Shown in pieces: positions 12,818 through 48,369 of a stretch of DNA of 64,000 bases. The notes beneath the pieces were generated by a model, which was given only the letters and a program-made list of their open reading frames with translations, searched no databases and had not been told where the DNA came from. Numbering within the stretch: the first letter of the stretch is position 1; each line of letters begins with the position of its first letter. Position numbers and translations under genes: made by a program. Source of the DNA: Schmidtea polychroa (taxonomy: Eukaryota); assembly GCA_044892525.1 (NCBI GenBank), contig CM097886.1, positions 170,488,312-170,552,311 of the forward strand, given 5' to 3'.

Positions 12818-13419
12818 TATTACACTCATACCTCGCTTTACGGCCTAGATACGTTCCAGGAAAGTTGGCCGCAAAGCGAAACGCCGCATAGCGAATCAAA
12901 TACATTTTGATACAATTCCATATAAATTCAATAGAATTTTTGACCGTATAACGAAACATTTTAGGCCGTAAATCGAAAAAGTGCCGTAATTAAAGTAGGC
13001 CGTTATAGCGAAAAGCCGTATAAAGAGCAGCCGTATAGNNNNNNNNNNNNNNNNNNNNNNNNNNNNNNNNNNNNNNNNNNNNNNNNNNNNNNNNNNNNNN
13101 NNNNNNNNNNNNNNNNNNNNNNNNNNNNNNNNNNNNNNNNNNNNNNNNNNNNNNNNNNNNNNNNNNNNNNNNNNNNNNNNNNNNNNNNNNNNNNNNNNNN
13201 NNNNNNNNNNNNNNNNNNNNNNNNNNNNNNNNNNNNNNNNNNNNNNNNNNNNNNNNNNNNNNNNNNNNNNNNNNNNNNNNNNNNNNNNNNNNNNNNNNNN
13301 NNNNNGATATATAAATGTCCTGATACCATGTTTATGATTTTTTGTGTATGTTTTCTATATATTTAACCATTTACTTTGAATTTAATTCGACTTAATGTTA
13401 TGTTTTTGGGTTGTGTTAT

Positions 13420-16400
13420 TGTTGGGCTGAACTCACAGGTTGAAAAACAAGGTAGAGCTGAATCGGATATAAGAGAAAGGTCCAAAGTAAAAATAAAACA
13501 GATAAATGGGTTTAACACTAACTGAATTAAGTTAAAATAACGATAAAATAAAGAAAAACAGAAGAATCAATCAGGAAAAACCGAAATAAACAATAAAAGA
13601 AAAACAAAACAATTAAAAGATAAAAATCATTAGAAATAGAAATAGTTATAGGAAATAAGTTATTAACTACGAGCAACTAACAAAAGAGGAAATAATTTAA
13701 TAAAATCAGATTTAAGAAAATAAAATTCGAAAAACGCAAAAAACCAAATCAGAACATAAAATAGATAAACCATTAACAAAAAGTACAAAAGAATTAAAAA
13801 CAAACGAATTACTACACCTACGAGAGATAACGAGAATCCACAAAAGATCAGGAAAAATTAATTAATAAAAATAATAAAATAATACTAATGAAATAATAAT
13901 AAATTATGCTTAATAAAACAATTTAAAAATCGAAAATAACAAAAATAGAGAGAAAAACAACACAACTCAGTCCTGATTGGACCAAAAATAATATATAAGG
14001 CAGACGCAAAAATCACTTAGGTAATTCTACAAAAATCCATATAGGTAAAATTTTATTTATAATCACTTTAAGTAACTCTACAAAAATCCGTATAGATACA
14101 ACAACTTACAGACTCATTCAACCAGGAAGAATAATCACTACTATACTTTAATTAGAATAGATTACGAAGGAGGTGCTATTTGAAATTCGAGAATTAAGGA
14201 GACATTTCGGGATAGCTTATAGCCGATTCAGCTTTGCAGATTCAATTTCGGGACTCAGAGTATGATTTTGATTATTTGTCGCAATATTTATAATTTATGT
14301 AATAATAATGGATAATCTTAATTTTATGATTTAGATTAATAAATTATTATTATTTCCAAACAACGACGACTTCTTTCTTCTGGACTGGTGACGATACTGT
14401 CTGGAAACTTCGATTATGATGCTGATGAATTACAGACATTACTTTGGAGAAATTAAAAGTGTCAAATGACGTATACAAGGCATGAATGAATGATGAACCC
14501 AAAATTTAGAGAAAACGTTCATCAACCGATAACATAGCAATGATGATTGAATGATATTGAAGTTTCGAGTATGAAGGGAGTCGAATCTCTCGCCGGAATG
14601 GTATTGGTGGTAGTGAAGATTTTGCAGAAGTACTTGGGTTATATTCTGATGAATAATGTGAACAAATGATTTGGTAATGAACAGAGGGGTATGATGATCG
14701 AAATCCAAATGGTATGGTCACCGGGTAAATTAATTGTATTTAATTTTTATTGACTAAAATGTTTGATATAATTCATATATTTTATTGGTATTTCATCATG
14801 ATAACATTAATTTGAGTTAATCCGTCTATCGTGACGATGTGAGGATGGCGGATAGCAATGCCGGTGGTCCTCGGGTGTGTCGCGGTGAGTGGAAAAACTC
14901 CGAGTTGGAGAGGTAAAAGTTGAAATGAAATTACGGAAAATCCTGAGGTCTTCATTGAGCTGCAATCGACGTAGAGTTCTAGATGAAAATTCCAAAATTA
15001 ATATTGTTAATTCCATCATGATTTCAGTCACGTAGATTGAATGTTAGCCCCTGCTATTCGCCCCAGTTAGGGAAAAATGTAACCATATCTTTGGAGTATC
15101 AAATCGTCGACCTTTCAATTCAACATATCTACAGAAAATCACATTAAACCCGTTACGAGTAAAGACGACTCCACTTACTCCTTCTAAACAAATAGATTCA
15201 GCTTCGTTGGGCAACGTTACGAGTAATCGCCAAAATCCAATATTTTCTCGTTAATCGATGCGAATTTTCAATTAACCGGATAAGTCGTCCTCTGTAGATA
15301 TTGCCACCTCTGTCTTGAAATTGATTTTCTTGCATGATGAATACAAATATTTATTTTCCACGAACAAGATAAGCTGTCGTCGCGAGACGCCAATGCTGCC
15401 TCACAAATACGAACTACGATAGCAATCACAGTGAAAATCTGACATTAGACGATCTCCCGGTTTCCCATTGCGACTTGCAACGCATAAACAATCATAACGG
15501 AAGGAAATCAAATAGACTAAAATCCCGAAATTCTCTGGTAAGCAACAGGAATAGTTTATCGCTGTTAAACGTCACTCCGCAATAGAATATCAAATATCGA
15601 AACCATAATCTAGTAAATCGAATTGACATTATGTAATGAATATAATCACCTGCAGTAAGGGCGATTTTTCTAGAAGACACATCATTTTACTAATTATGCA
15701 TCAATGTGAACAGATTTATTTAGTTAATTAAAGTACTTAAATTATAATTTGGTTTAGTCAAATAATATTTCCGTATAAACACTAGATAACTCCAGCAAAA
15801 GTCTATGAGTAAACTACAAATATTCTAGAGAATAAATAATAAAAAATGAGTTTTCGATCAAGTCTCACCCCAACCATTCCCTTTTTAATGTAAAAATTTA
15901 TTTTGAATGGGATATATTATATCCTCCTCTACCGTTTTAATGATAAAATCTATTCTGAATGCGACGTATACATCTTTCCCTATCGGCTTAAGGTACAAGA
16001 TGACGAGATATTGTTGTAAATCTGGTCAGCGTAATTAATGTATCCTGATAACCGTACCAGGATTATGTCAAAGTTTTCTTCTTTTTCAGTTATGAGTGAG
16101 CCAAACCTGTGAACCAAAGAGCTCCGGCCGTGCTTCTCCTGTGCGGATAAAAACGAGGACATCCGTAAACTCCACACGTATATTGGGCTCTCAAAAAACG
16201 TATAGAAACGTACGAATGCACGTGGTTCTCCCCACCACAGATGAAGGAGGAGAAGACAAAAATTCTGAGACTGGAGCACTGCCGAGACAGTCTCCTAGAA
16301 GAAGGCCAATGTCAGCGGTTAACTATCAAAGCCCAATCGGAGGCGCTCCACAAGGTGTACTCTGAATCCGAGATCTCAAAGAGAGTACGAGTACCCCATC

Positions 16401-17340
16401 CAGGACGGAATTAACGTGTTCCCCATTCATCATCAAAATGACGAAGTGTCACAACCGTCGACCAGTTGCTCGGGCCATGGATTTCTGTTTTTACCCTTAG
16501 TCGAACCTATTTTATCGGGATCAACCAAGACGGCGAATTTCCAGACAATTACAGTTCAGAACGAGTCTTCCACGTCATCGACTCATCAATCTGTCACAGC
16601 TACCGCTTCGGCCCCAAAGAAACGTAAACGTCCTTCACGCGCGGAGAAGAATCAGAAGCGCCGAGATACCATCGCGGCATTGGAAGCTTCCCTATTTGCC
16701 GCCCAAACCTCGATTAGGGCGATCTCTCAAACACATGCACCGGTAGCAACGGAAACTTATCGCCTCATCCCTGCGGGAGAGATCAAAACTCTAGGAGACA
16801 CACAGCTTCAAGTCGACATTGACGCCATGACAGCCGATGGCGAGGTGCTTTTCTGAGTATCGACTCAAAATTAGAACATTGTTTTCCACTTGAACATTAT
16901 CCCGGACTTTAAATGTATATCTTGTACTCATTGTATTATCTTATATTTAACTGTATGTAGTGATCGTCCCGTACGATCTACAATAAATCTTAGTGAGCTT
17001 TTACATATGTCGTTTGTTTTGTGATCGAACGTCAAGTTTAAGTAAATTGACCGAAGAAGTTTCGTTGATAAAGTCGTCCCCTTGGACCAGGGTCTTATTG
17101 ATTGAATAATTGAACGAGGTAAGTCCTTACATGGCACTCTTGTACCCGTACCGAGACTTTGCTAGGAGTAGTTCTAACATAGGAGCTCACCTGCTGATAA
17201 AGTCCAACCTATGTGCGCATTACCAACGTGTTACACCACCACGGGCACACATAAGGGAGATGATCTGCAAGTCATATTGATTGCTTAGGGAACCATTTTC
17301 TGAGCTCAAGAAGATACGTTTTCCCCCTAAGTAACCAACA
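13420..17340 (+). mobile_element. 3.9-kb TG...CA element (giant solo LTR or Ginger-like derivative) carrying a cargo ORF
   Basis: Starts TGTTGGG (13420), ends CCAACA (17340), flanked by TTAT/TTAT. TATA-like TATATAAGG at about 13992. The 3' 1.1 kb is homologous to 29612-31670. Confidence 0.65.
16219..16856 (+). pseudogene. Cargo ORF copy 1: unknown basic, NLS-like protein with two frameshifts
   Basis: Reconstructed HVVLPTTDEGGEDK/ILRLEHCRDSLLEEGQCQRLTIKAQSEALHKVYSE.../EYEYPIQDGINVFPIHH...KKRKRPSRAEKNQKRRDTIAALEASLF...YRLIPA; aligns to 29612-30253. Confidence 0.7.
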
Positions 17341-18521
17341 TTATCAACCTTTTTTCATAAAATCATCACAACGTGAGTTTTATTTTAAATGCCAGTTTTG
17401 GGCAATACAATTTTAACTGTTAATGCACCAGAGGGTAATTGAAGATGGTTAAATGGACATTGAAAATGGACAGTGAAATTCACTTGAAAAAGGCAGTGCC
17501 GAAAATTTATGAGTATCAACAAACATCGATATATTAATGATTTATAGTCTTCAAACTCTCATTTTAATTAATTTATTTTATCATTGTAATTATTCCATGT
17601 AAATTCATGCCATATTTTATTTAACTTCATTATAATTTGATCCGAAGATGGTGGGTTTAAGTAAGATTATTGAGCAAAATTTTTAATTCTGGTTATTTTA
17701 AAAAATTCTAATAACAAATTCTTATCATTAACCATAATTATCATAATTATAAATTAATATGTATATTTTCCACATGACAGTGGAATTTCTTTTTCAAAAC
17801 GACAGGCAATGTTATTTTATTCTAATTACAATTATGTGGATGATTGTAATTTGTTGGTGTAGTACATTTTATGTAGACGTGTTTTATTAGTTTCTGAATG
17901 TTTTATTTACTTTTAGTTATTTGATCTATTTTCGTGAATATAAACTTAACTTATCGCTGTCGCTTGTGTATATTTTATCGATCCGTTAAAACAAATAAAA
18001 AATTGTTTTAGTTTTTACACGATTAGTTTGATGTATATTTAAACACATTAAGATACTAAATAATAAATTAAGCAATAATTTTTGAAATAAATATAACTGA
18101 AAATTAATTAATTATTTTACGATCTCTAATATAATTAAGTTAAAATTTCAGAACTTAAATTATTTCTACGAATTCCTCCAATTCTAGTTATTTTAGGCGA
18201 AATTATAATTTTTAATTAAACATACTACTAGTGATTCATATTAAAGTAACGAAGCTTTTATATTATATGCTCAAAAATATTTGGATCCCACAGAATCATA
18301 AATTGTACTAAATCAATATTGTAATATTTTAATTTCAGAAACTTTCCGGAAATTTTATAACTATTTCTATTAGTAGAAGTGAGTTTTGACTGAAATCTTA
18401 AATGTAATTTAAAGTTTTGGAATGTATACTTCAAACTTTTATAAAATTATTAAAAATGAGTTGTGTTTTAATTTTCAATTAGCTAAATTTCTTAACTGAT
18501 AATTTTCAAAATAACCTAAAC

Positions 18522-29057: not shown

Positions 29058-29611
29058 AATGGATAAAATAATCAGTGGTGAAATTGGAAGAAGTAAAAGT
29101 TCTTATAATAATATATAATTTTTTAGTTTACGAATGCCCGATATTATGGTATGATTTTTTAAAGATTGGCCAGCAGTGATGTCCTACTGTCCGTAACCGT
29201 ATAAACAATTTAAGACCAAAACTGCTGGGTTACAGTTTGCAAACTGTTAGGTTTAACAACTATCATGGCGAAATTTACCTTTGTTTAAATTCTAAATCTA
29301 TTGGTACAGCATCATCGTCATTACGTGACGGATATCATCGGGGTGAAATGAATTATATGGTTCCGGAGTAAATAAGATAAAGACTGTAAATATAAAAATT
29401 GTAAGATAAAAACTGTAAGATCAAGTAAGGAAATCAGTTAAGTAAAAGAGAATAAAGAACAATGAAAAAACAAATAAAATATATAGCAAAAAACCTTTGA
29501 AAAAGTAAAACACGCAGTTGCAACTAATAAGCAAAGAAAACGCATAACTAATACTAATAACTAGAATAAAATAATTAAGAAGAAATAGAATCTAAAAAAC
29601 CAAGATCAAAG

Positions 29612-30253
29612 TACGTGGTTCTCCCCACCACTCATGAAAGAGGCGAAAAAGAAATTTTGCGGCTCGAGCACTGTCGCGACAGCTTGCTCGACGAAAGCCG
29701 ATGCCAGCGCCTCACCATCAAGGCCCATTCCGAGGCCCTTCATCTAATTTATTCGGAGGCGGAGTTTAAACACGGCATCAGCGAGTTTCCGCTTATCGAT
29801 AAGCTGAATGTGTTCCCGATTCATCATCGGACTGACGAGACAACCACCCAGTCCACCTCGATCTGAAATAATCATGACCCAGAAGTATCTCCTGTTGCAA
29901 CACTTGATATTGTCCTCATGGAAATCAACAGAATGAAGCCTAATCCAGTTAACGTCACGGTACCACTGACAGCCCCAGTGAATTCTAACATCGTCCTCGC
30001 CCAATCTAACCTTCGAAAACGAAAGCGCTTAACTCGTGCAGAACGTTCAAAGAAACGCCGAGATGAGAATGCGGCATTAGAGGCCACCTTATTTTCCGTC
30101 ACCGAGGCCAGGAAAGAGAAACCACAGCCTAACCCAGTCGTACATACCACCATTCAATACAGAATGATTCCGGCTACACTCATTCGTGATCCACAATTGG
30201 AATCGGATATCGCAGTTATGTTAGACGAAGGTGATGCCATTTTGACGAACTAA
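29612..30253 (+). pseudogene. Cargo ORF copy 2: same unknown basic protein with one in-frame TGA (29864-29866)
   Basis: ORFs 29615-29866 and 29918-30253 share one frame: VVLPTTHERGEKEILRLEHCRDSLLDE...NVFPIHH...RKRKRLTRAERSKKRRDENAALEATLF...YRMIPA. The associated element ends CCCCTAAGCGCCCAACA at 31670. Confidence 0.75.
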
Positions 30254-31528: not shown

Positions 31529-32158
31529 ATTACCAACATGATTTATTATCATGGGTACACATGAGGGAGATTAGTGACAACCATAATGGGCGTTTAGGAA
31601 GGAATCTCTTACGGAACAACAATCATCACTCCTAGCAACCACCATCGAGACACCCCCTAAGCGCCCAACAGTAAATAAAAAGACAAAATCACAATTAAAA
31701 CTTTCGTTACCTACCTGAACCCAACAATAAATTAAATTAAGTCTTTATTATATAAAATCTGTCAATGGTGTGGCATCATTTCGGAGTTATAAATTACACG
31801 TTAGATTATTATAGAAACGTAATACTGGTCTAAGCCTACAGGAATTATGCATTAATCGACATGACTTTTGTCTGAGCATGCTGAAGATTAATTTTCTTTC
31901 GAATGTTATTTTTCAGATTATAGTATTGAGATTATTTCTTTTTTACTGTATAAAATAAAATAAATTAGTTAATTATAAAATTAATCAAAACTTTGTACTT
32001 TCTACAATAAAGTTAATTTACTGTGTAACTATTATTAAATATATCATTAGTATTGCTTTTTAATATTCTAATAAATAAACAACATTAAACTTTTAAAATT
32101 AACTTGAATTTCAAACTGAATTTGTTTAAATATTTACATTTATTCTAGGATTTTTAAA

Positions 32159-33095
32159 ATGAAAGTCGAGACAAAAACTAAGTCTAAGCATCATGAAAAA
32201 AATCTTGCAATTAAAGCTAAAAAGGAGAATAGCAAATTGCAGAGGAAGGCACGGATAGAGCGTAAAAAAGCGGGAATTTTCCTTAAACCGAAAACAATTG
32301 AGTCTATGAGTACTTATAAAACTCCTGTCGTATCTACTGAAAATAAAGAAATGGCAGAAGTTTTGGAAAAGGTTTAATTGATAAATTATATATTTTTTAA
32401 TCATATTTTAGGACGAGCTTTCTTCTATAATTAATAATAATTTAGAGCCTAAAGTTCTTATTACCTCTTCAATTAAAGGTAGTCCAAGACTCCATGGCTT
32501 TTGTATTGAATTTGCATCGGTAATACCGAAAGCTGAATATTGCAATAGAAAAAATTTACAAATGAAAAACATTGTAAAGCAAGCAAAAGATAATTCATTT
32601 ACCGCTGTCATTATTATAGGTGAAAATGACAAGTTAATTGATTCAATGAAAATCTATTGTTTACCCGATGGACCTACAGCAAGTTTTCGATTATCCCATG
32701 TTTATTTGCGATCTGAACATAAGAATACAAAACACTTTTCAGGACTCGAAAATATTAATCCTCAAGTGGCTTTATTAAATTTCAAAACGATGTTAGGTCT
32801 AAGACTAAGCAGAATTTTTTTGAGTTTATTTCCTGTTGCAAATGCTTTAGATGCACATAGTCATCACAGAACTATCACATTTAAAAACGGTAGAGATTTT
32901 ATATTTTTCAGACATCACAGATTCCAAATTAAAGAATCTGGTGAAAAGTTTAGGGCACCAATGAATGAAGTTGGTCCGAGATTTTCATTAAGATTAGAGT
33001 CTTTACATAAAGGCTTGTTCGAAAACAGTCCGGATTTTGAATATATTTATGATAGGCGTGAAAATAACAGTAACAGAAGGCAATTTAATAACTAA
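32159..33095 (+). CDS. RPF1: Ribosome production factor 1 (Brix domain)
   Basis: Exons 32159-32371 and 32412-33095 with a 40-nt GT-AG intron; 298 aa. KPKTIES, DE...PKVLITSS, LPDGPTASFRLS, RDFIFFRHHR, EVGPRFSLRLESLHKG and the terminal RRQF match RPF1. Confidence 0.9.
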
Positions 33096-47116: not shown

Positions 47117-47956
47117 TTAGATGACGATTAATTGTTTACGAAACGTTATGGAGGACTGAAGGACTGCAGTTTCAAATTTTGGTGATGGACTACTTGTTTG
47201 TTGAAACCGATTGTTTTTAGATGGAGTTATTGATCTTTCCCTTTCGCCAGATATGACTGCAAACGACTCTGATTTCGACTGCGTACTTTTTAAATTCAGC
47301 TCAATTTTCATTGCCTTTTTAATCAATTCATCAAAGTCATTAAAATCAATATAACACAAAGCCTTTTTAATTTCTTTCTTTACTCCGGACAAAAATTGAT
47401 CCTGTAGCAACTCTTTTACTTGCTTTGCCATCTCAGCCTGTTCTGGTTTCACTTCGAATGCTTTCTCTGCAAGGGTTGTTAAATGATAAGCAAATTCACT
47501 TACGGATTCCTCTGACTTTTGTACACGGTTATAGAATTTCTGCCGCATCATCCTTTTTATATCTCCTCCGATTAATTTAGCTGCAAGTGCGTCTTTCAAC
47601 TTTGTCCAGTCATTTGCTATTAATCTTTTATCAATTTGTTGCCATGCTTCTCTGGCTGCTCCTTTTAGGTATAGCGGTAATCTTTGAACCATTATCAATT
47701 GGCTCCATCCATAGGCTGTCGCATACATATAATAATCTGCCATGAAGTCGGCAAATTCCAACGGATCTCCCCCATACTGATCTACAGGTAGTTTTTGACA
47801 ATTCGCATAATCACTGCCTTCCTTGCCATTCCCCACAGAAACTGTGGACACGGGTGTTTCATCATTATTATTTGTATTATTAACTTGTCTTTGGGTACTC
47901 ATTATATTCTCTACTAGTTTGTGGCTTCTCAATTTATAAAATGATCTGGTTAACAC
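47117..47956 (-). CDS. Ty3/gypsy Gag capsid ORF (first ATG at 47902); pol absent
   Basis: Uninterrupted ORF with GDP.EF..F, LPLYLKGAAREAW, W..LK.AL, RVQKSEESVSEFA..L..LA and DQFLSG capsid motifs; lies downstream of PBS and LTR. Confidence 0.9.
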   Translation of the reverse strand: MLTRSFYKLRSHKLVENIMSTQRQVNNTNNNDETPVSTVSVGNGKEGSDYANCQKLPVDQYGGDPLEFADFMADYYMYATAYGWSQLIMVQRLPLYLKGAAREAWQQIDKRLIANDWTKLKDALAAKLIGGDIKRMMRQKFYNRVQKSEESVSEFAYHLTTLAEKAFEVKPEQAEMAKQVKELLQDQFLSGVKKEIKKALCYIDFNDFDELIKKAMKIELNLKSTQSKSESFAVISGERERSITPSKNNRFQQTSSPSPKFETAVLQSSITFRKQLIVI

Positions 47957-48369
47957 AGGTTTTACTCGTCTAAAATTTAAAGTATTACAATTACAAAATT
48001 TACCTTTCGTTTTAATTTTGACTTTTCAATAATCAATATCCACAATTATTATTTTCACTAATCTTCAATAATAAAATCACCACTTTAATAATTTTCCAAA
48101 AATATTCACCACTCTTAAATCAAATTTTTCACTTCAATATATGTATTTTTACCTTTTATCAATTTACAATACTTTCCCAATCTCAACAAATTTTCATCAA
48201 CTTTTTATCACGTCGGTATTAATCGATTTTTCAATCAAATATTTTCACACTTTAAACGAATTTTCACCAAATTGGATCACTTTTTGGATCACTTTTCAGA
48301 TCACTTTTGTATTGTTCGATATTATAGTCAAATACTTTCACAATTTCAACAAATTTTCACCGACTTCAG

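Follow-up and report, generated by a model that had tools for sequence, protein, structure and literature searches.

A gene under purifying selection inside the long terminal repeats of Burro-type giant retrotransposons, traced from a solo copy in Schmidtea polychroa

The DNA studied here, referred to as the window, is a 64,000-nucleotide stretch of the Schmidtea polychroa genome (contig CM097886.1, positions 170,488,312 to 170,552,311). At 13420-17340 on its plus strand lies a solo long terminal repeat (LTR) of 3921 bp from a Burro-type giant Ty3/gypsy retrotransposon, and within it a decayed copy of a protein-coding gene. The unit was identified from its ends, its target-site duplication (TSD) and its paired relatives. 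As originally predicted, its ends are of the retroviral-integrase type, with TGTTGG at 13420 and CCAACA at 17340, and the 4-bp duplication TTAT is found on the left (13416-13419) and on the right (17341-17344). The A-rich first 600 bp with a TATA-like box are likewise present (AT skew of +0.34 in 13001-14000; TATATAA at 13992). The unit has TG...CA ends and a short TSD, and lacks an internal region. Its ends are not a product of chance, because relatives share both of them and mostly have perfect TSDs. The TSD is perfect in 10 of 11 young single units whose two ends could both be located, five of seven units of the window's own lineage (two of these five in TTA microsatellites), and two of three units with both ends found in the lineage of a second, divergent window copy.

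The open reading frame (ORF) inside the unit spans 16092-16856 (plus strand, about 254 codons) and, as seen in sequence and alignment, is broken by an early in-frame stop at 16110 and by frameshifts near 16195 and 16390. The second copy (29611-30253, plus strand), assigned to a divergent LTR lineage by alignment and tree, has lost the left end of its LTR and the 5' part of the ORF, and what remains of the ORF is interrupted by a frameshift close to 29650 and by an in-frame stop at 29864. The 3' part of its LTR continues on the same strand from 30254 to CCCAACA at 31670; an insertion of about 0.9 kb, acquired later and reaching from 30628 to about 31530, splits it, as had been proposed. This insertion has TG...CA ends and a likely 5-bp duplication, ATTAC, and is perhaps a solo LTR of another family. 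The ORF had been estimated at 210 amino acids; it is present in both copies, but its length is about 253 amino acids with the start at ATG 16092, and the approximately 45 N-terminal codons that were overlooked include a CxxC motif. Other details hold as first described. Divergence between the copies is mostly synonymous in LEHCRDSLL(E/D)E, with six synonymous codons and one E/D change, and both copies retain the basic stretch and amphipathic helix. In copy 1 the stop lies 484 bp from the CCAACA end (predicted at about 0.5 kb), and the sequence after it has no purine run longer than 8 and no TGTTGG.

The original prediction offered two identities for this unit, a giant LTR with an embedded accessory gene or a non-autonomous Ginger-like DNA transposon with cargo. 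We searched the genome (781 Mb, four large contigs) with the window unit at the DNA level, which gave 65 matches from the 40 best of 2400 candidates, and scanned it for the left-end pattern, which occurs in same-strand pairs spaced 26-44 kb apart. Six candidate regions were inspected, comprising two complete elements, one relative without the ORF, two larger duplications that extend beyond the LTR ends (C3:16.33 Mb and C1:214.39 Mb), and one single unit interrupted by insertions (C1:220.5 Mb). The first complete element is 30.6 kb long, with paired LTRs of 4197 bp that differ at 9 positions and a shared TSD, TATC; the second is 30.1 kb long, with LTRs of 4064 and 4067 bp, 18 mismatches and the shared TSD CTGG. 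Both LTR pairs are thus >99% identical and flank gag-env-pol, and each LTR contains an intact ORF of 252-253 amino acids that is 61% identical to a protein of the window's lineage. The ORF is therefore inside both LTRs, rather than an ordinary pol C-terminus or an env gene upstream of one. Among ORF matches (the best 150 of 7057 candidates) there are also 13 sets spaced 20-27 kb apart on one strand.

These direct pairs around gag, protease, reverse transcriptase (RT), RNase H and integrase belong to a sister subfamily, and the window's own lineage is represented by the 3' LTR L114. Among the matches listed, the closest DNA relative of the left half of the window unit is this LTR (L003/L114, 84% identical). 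It adjoins the same pre-LTR sequence as in the complete elements, and decayed gag, env, pol and accessory genes lie upstream of it, in order. Because L003/L114 ends a decayed gag-env-pol element, the lineage to which the window unit belongs is that of a Burro-type LTR. The unit itself is a solo LTR, the product of recombination between two LTRs, and it has decayed since then. Ginger DNA transposons are bounded by long terminal inverted repeats and encode a transposase of the integrase type, but are not known to encode RT. The TG...CA ends, the 4-bp TSD and the occurrence of most copies as single units would suit a Ginger-like family, but the terminal inverted match is only about 6 bp, and the partner elements encode RT and carry nearly identical direct repeats around gag-pol, with a transfer RNA (tRNA) primer site and one common TSD. 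We therefore rule out the transposon, which has become virtually impossible.

The interior of the complete elements has Pfam matches to Retrotrans_gag, two CCHC knuckles, a viral fusion glycoprotein, protease, RT, RNase H, integrase and ankyrin, and accessory ORFs match RING and RING-MATH. The main polyprotein frame has 4700 codons, with two stops in the copy read, and env sits between gag and protease within this single giant polyprotein. A primer site complementary to tRNA-Pro of the same genome lies 8 nt past the 5' LTR. No polypurine tract was found ahead of the 3' LTR, where a partly palindromic, non-purine stretch of 39 bp is conserved instead. Judged by its layout, which matches the published description, the parent element is of the published Burro/GYPSM1 type.

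Several side observations concern these elements. The 39-bp pre-LTR stretch (L046:852-911 and L042:220-279, also in L003 and L048) is 97% identical even in the relative without the ORF. At C1:72646422-72699960 and C2:107321309-107374888, three LTR ORFs each occur at an exact spacing of 26.4 kb; these sets are tandem elements with a common middle LTR, and L101 has the pre-LTR motif and the primer site. At C1:186483607-186500388 the left-end motif comes up 12 times, once every 1524 bp, in a tandem array that originated from a piece of LTR. The tRNA-Pro(TGG) pattern has 2190 matches genome-wide, and L134 (C1:130.90-130.95 Mb) is a long tandem array with tRNA-Pro(TGG) genes at 475-bp spacing.

The best 150 of the 7057 ORF candidates all match the LTR-borne protein and 137 of them are stop-free, in a list that is biased toward intact copies. 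Both window copies are broken, as noted from the start, and so record past function; because intact copies are common, the family does not only record past function. For the analysis of selection we used 49 distinct natural copies of 253 codons, chosen for intactness, which remained from 57 frames after removal of three wrong-frame, two duplicate-locus and three identical rows. The ratio of nonsynonymous to synonymous substitution rates (dN/dS) is 0.128 across this set (IQ-TREE, kappa fixed at 1), and the LTR-borne gene is under purifying selection. In pairwise comparisons dN/dS is 0.46 when the two copies are nearly identical and declines to 0.09 when they are distant, the pattern of selection on lineages that replicate and of drift once a copy has inserted. 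In pairs with dS >0.05, values are 0.03-0.08 for the core (residues 12-116) and 0.29-0.84 for the linker that follows it. A tree of 23 natural copies resolves three lineages, the young one and those of copies 1 and 2, joined by long branches whose order is uncertain. An intact ORF at L065:1498-2259 combines the N-terminus of one subfamily with the C-terminus of another, indicating recombination inside the LTR.

Strong conservation of the core bears on one explanation of the same solo LTR and gene, in which the protein counters host silencing (PIWI/piRNA or heterochromatin) and any LTR, including a solo one, serves as its source. The gene has very many copies, and BURRO1 RNA rises upon SMEDWI-2 knockdown in S. 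mediterranea, according to the available text of PMC8532177, both of which would fit such a role. Such conservation of the core is nevertheless not what a surface engaged in an arms race would show, searches of the protein gave no domain related to chromatin or RNA silencing, and we regard this role as distinctly unlikely.

The protein consists of a CxxC motif (in 47 of 49 copies), a helical core, a disordered linker rich in Pro, Ser and Thr, a basic helix and an acidic tail. The basic run is present in 48 of 49 copies, with 10 K/R within 20 residues; it lies on a helix predicted at residues 182-213 and leads into a long helix. Structure prediction of the full-length protein has a mean confidence score (pLDDT) of 55.5, whereas the core alone reaches 80.5 and is predicted as a helical hairpin. 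In the libraries searched, the LTR-borne protein has no known homologue and no telling fold. Homologue searches restricted to near lengths returned nothing at E<=0.001 with a single protein and nothing at E<=0.1 with a 25-row profile. Pfam gave no domain match, including to bZIP, bHLH and zinc-finger families, and PDB sequences gave no match. Only 2 of 25 members matched PHROGs, weakly, and no homologue was found in the ESM Atlas (best score 0.83) or among viral and metagenome contigs. With the predicted structure, Foldseek found no match at E<=0.001, and the best hit of a VIA fold comparison (Z 7.6) is among generic coiled coils. One borderline match among 1.84 billion proteins (E 6e-4) was rejected, as the protein hit is unrelated and the match consists of a tandem repeat of five units. 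A known domain, which could have explained the protein away, thus came from none of these libraries.

This architecture could also be read as that of a Tas- or Tat-like protein that activates transcription from the LTR in trans, encoded by the same gene in the same solo LTR. The basic helix, followed by a heptad-like helix, would bind DNA or leader RNA, and the tail, which is hydrophobic and acidic (7 D/E in the last 40 residues) and is under selection (dN/dS 0.12 in pairs with dS 0.3-1), would recruit the transcription machinery. Young subfamilies moreover have a short hairpin at the predicted transcription start. This hairpin is not seen in the window's lineage, however, and the lack of a match to the DNA-binding families named above also speaks against such a protein, so that we consider it unlikely, if less so than a silencing antagonist.

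Signals for expression are conserved along the LTR, and the TATA box, donor and AATAAA among them fall near LTR base 500-950. The predicted unique 3' region (U3; 13420-14015, plus strand) comprises the A-rich sequence, a CTGATTGG box at 13973 and the TATATAA at 13992; the motif pair lies near LTR base 490-575 and is kept in old and young lineages, and the 3' boundary of the region is a predicted one. A putative splice donor, D1 (TAG/GTAAAA), opens a 51-nt GT..AG mini-intron at 14045-14095. The donor lies 53-55 nt past the TATA box in 18 of the 20 LTRs scored, one of the misses being a mis-called TATA box, and the predicted mini-intron measures 46-51 nt across LTRs, between duplicated motifs. 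An AATAAA at 14338-14343 is the predicted poly(A) signal and would mark the end of the repeat region (R). It is found 150-420 nt past the TATA box in 28 of 29 LTRs, and in 20 of 22 a conserved block follows it at a fixed distance of 40-51 nt, compared with 13 of 63 AT-rich control windows; three further LTRs have no anchor block for this distance. A splice acceptor with a pyrimidine tract and CAG (16076-16089) ends 2 nt before the ATG. All 50 intact copies have a YAG acceptor at most 6 nt from the ATG, and in 48 of them the two are immediate neighbours; the acceptor is also present in the 15 of 15 older copies listed. The LTR upstream of the acceptor is only 30-45% identical between subfamilies. 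Further downstream, at 17119-17124, the putative second donor D2 (GAG/GTAAGT) is the sole donor-like column that is invariant across 9 aligned LTRs.

The 3' end of the mini-intron repeats the predicted first exon in the window (14020-14095) and its homologues. In L104, L003, L005, L016 and L049 the mini-intron is precisely absent, which either splicing or deletion between the repeats would fit.

From the spacing of these signals, transcription would start about 25 nt past the TATA box and R would end about 340 nt further on, and the remaining 3 kb, with the ORF, would form the unique 5' region (U5). We consider this arrangement, with a short U3 and the ORF in a 3-kb U5, fairly probable. The ORF mRNA would be produced by splicing D1 to the acceptor beside the ATG, so that the AATAAA is lost, and this is the probable route of expression of the ORF. 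The other possible placement is in U3. Retroviral genes that overlap the LTR, such as sag of mouse mammary tumour virus (MMTV) and nef of human immunodeficiency virus (HIV), lie in or run into U3. An ORF in that position would be read from the 3' LTR of a long transcript, the true start would be near the hairpins at the 3' end of the LTR, a short R-U5 would suffice, and it might use the same spliced leaders as the internal accessory ORFs that precede the 3' LTR. Yet the sole conserved CCAAT and TATA pair and the AATAAA are 2.2 kb upstream of the ORF, no conserved TATA box follows its stop, and the 1645-bp LTR of the relative without the ORF has the same order of signals; a U3 gene is therefore improbable. 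Assembled contigs of presumed RNA runs cover the ORF. One of them joins L043 positions 2139 and 3652, 5 nt before the ATG, with a short side of 28 letters, a position other than D1 and no DNA control; a joint of this kind is absent among the 15 of 31 listed in a second comparison. When the genome was searched by pattern for a copy in which exon 1 runs straight into the ATG, the single match did not encode the LTR-borne protein and was rejected.

Two RNA hairpins near the 3' end of the LTR (17159-17257, plus strand) were recognized by covariation. Across 20 sequences from the three lineages, 94.5% of cells are paired and 15 of 31 pairs have double-sided changes. None of 500 shuffles reaches the covariation score, and slid controls reduce the paired cells to 33-52%; the structure came from RNAalifold on the same alignment as that tested, which leans in its favour. 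An Rfam search returned one chance-level match. The last 250 bp of the LTR contain D2 and both hairpins.

The relative without the ORF (C1:5728807-5744374, L047:2808 to L048:8375) is a young element of 15.6 kb, with 1645-bp LTRs that are 99.9% identical and spaced 13.9 kb apart. It has a gag-like ORF and no pol was found in it. It retains the promoter, the hairpins, the primer site and the pre-LTR motif, and has no trace of the LTR gene. Retention of the hairpins in a gag-only relative that lacks the ORF is as expected for a protein acting in trans and an RNA signal in cis. The right-end motif of this relative is matched at 1373 places in the genome, many of them paired about 13.7 kb apart, and its family is likely a very abundant non-autonomous partner.

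We are highly confident of the identity of the LTR, of the ORF in both LTRs, of purifying selection, and of the conservation of promoter, donor, AATAAA, acceptor and hairpins. Genomic RNA must keep the introns inside its own LTR, so that the whole LTR can be copied, and would therefore need to escape splicing and nuclear retention. We hypothesize that the LTR-borne protein could provide this escape through its basic helix, perhaps acting on the 3' hairpins. By analogy it may be a Rev- or CERV-like export factor for unspliced genomic RNA, an assignment that we make tentatively. Taken as a whole, a solo Burro-type LTR with a selected gene, expressed from a spliced transcript and encoding a Rev/CERV-like factor that releases unspliced genomic RNA, is the reading that we favour by a narrow measure.

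A number of points weigh against it. Nothing in the libraries searched connects the protein, by sequence or by fold, with Rev, Rex, CERV or another known protein, and in the assembled contigs of presumed RNA runs neither a D1-to-acceptor junction nor a start site or poly(A) site was observed. Of the 49 copies, 36-46 match an export-signal pattern at residues 31, 95 and 193, but the pattern is a loose one and the matches fall within amphipathic helices, and structured RNA beside the primer site would be expected anyway for packaging or priming. There is no conserved AATAAA after the ORF stop, which leaves the 3' end of the ORF mRNA unexplained, and an R-U5 of 3.3 kb implies an unusually long first product of reverse transcription. 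Finally, the ORF and LTR copies share ancestry, and the counts given above are not independent.

A broader proposal would be that the 3-kb U5 of Burro-type elements houses a self-contained regulatory gene. Each LTR, with hundreds of solo LTRs among them, would then be able to express a Rev-like protein, which would act in trans on the hairpins at LTR ends and also serve satellites without the ORF. This would amount to a separately evolved form of complex-retrovirus regulation contained wholly in the terminal repeat, and we put it forward as a doubtful possibility.

LTRs are usually regarded as non-coding, and solo LTRs as inert or promoter-like only; here a strongly selected gene is present in both LTRs and intact in many solo copies, and these remnants could therefore make a protein that acts on complete elements. 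For the U5 placement indicated by the signals, we found no described gene in such a position. The gene is a testable candidate for how full-length RNA of a 30-kb enveloped retroelement with many splice sites leaves the nucleus; the stem cells of this group of animals rely on PIWI control of such elements. The element type is already published. We found no description of a gene inside a Burro-type LTR in literature searches or in the available text of PMC6431247, PMC8532177, PMC11410931, PMC13238120 and PMC13524379, and the original Burro description, its figures or its supplements might already show the ORF. Elsewhere in the window are an exon of a Brix-domain host gene (32412-33095, plus strand) and a gag ORF from another retrotransposon (47117-48025, minus strand).

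Burro/GYPSM1 elements are planarian giant gypsy-like LTR elements of about 30 kb with one polyprotein of about 4700 codons, and the published layout, in the text available, has the same gag, CCHC knuckles, env between gag and protease, RT, RNase H, integrase and ankyrin as found here (PMC6431247). That text makes no mention of a gene inside the LTR (PMC6431247). Total size and multi-kb LTRs also agree (30.1 and 30.6 kb here, with LTRs of 4.1-4.2 kb), and both have MATH in an accessory ORF. The published BIR, BCL2, ubiquitin-like and dUTPase motifs, which were identified by HHpred, went undetected by Pfam in our elements.

The closest functional analogue may be CERV of the Caenorhabditis elegans element Cer1, described in the accessible text as a novel nuclear protein with a KRKK-type signal, a helical hairpin and a Cys motif, which is made from a spliced mRNA and is required for export of unspliced genomic RNA, the same solution as in HIV Rev (PMC10309623). 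Both belong to gypsy-type elements, and the LTR-borne protein is likewise basic, helical and equipped with a Cys motif, with a spliced mRNA predicted. CERV differs in having 517 amino acids and exons shared with gag, whereas the LTR-borne protein has 253 and lies wholly inside the LTR (PMC10309623, available text). No homology was found, and CERV itself was outside direct alignment.

With sag, nef and Rev-type systems the Burro-type LTR has in common an accessory gene in the terminal repeat, splicing, and a basic helix together with structured LTR RNA, splicing and protein-RNA pairing being predicted here; its signals point to U5 rather than U3, and there is no sequence similarity. Rev, Rex and Rec act with response elements. 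Foamy viruses, which are retroviruses and not Ty3/gypsy elements, have a short U5 that is not known to hold a gene. Their LTR has a splice donor upstream of the poly(A) signal, as predicted for the window LTR (PMC3694450, in the part available). In the rice element Retrosat2, the extra ORF0 of unknown function is described, in the text available, as upstream of gag-pol and not inside the LTR (PMC3485330). Its 3.3-kb LTR, with a short predicted U3, a long R-U5 and many solo copies, nonetheless resembles the Burro-type LTR, which also exceeds 3 kb, has a predicted short U3 and long R-U5, is accompanied by an extra ORF, and has left many solo LTRs.

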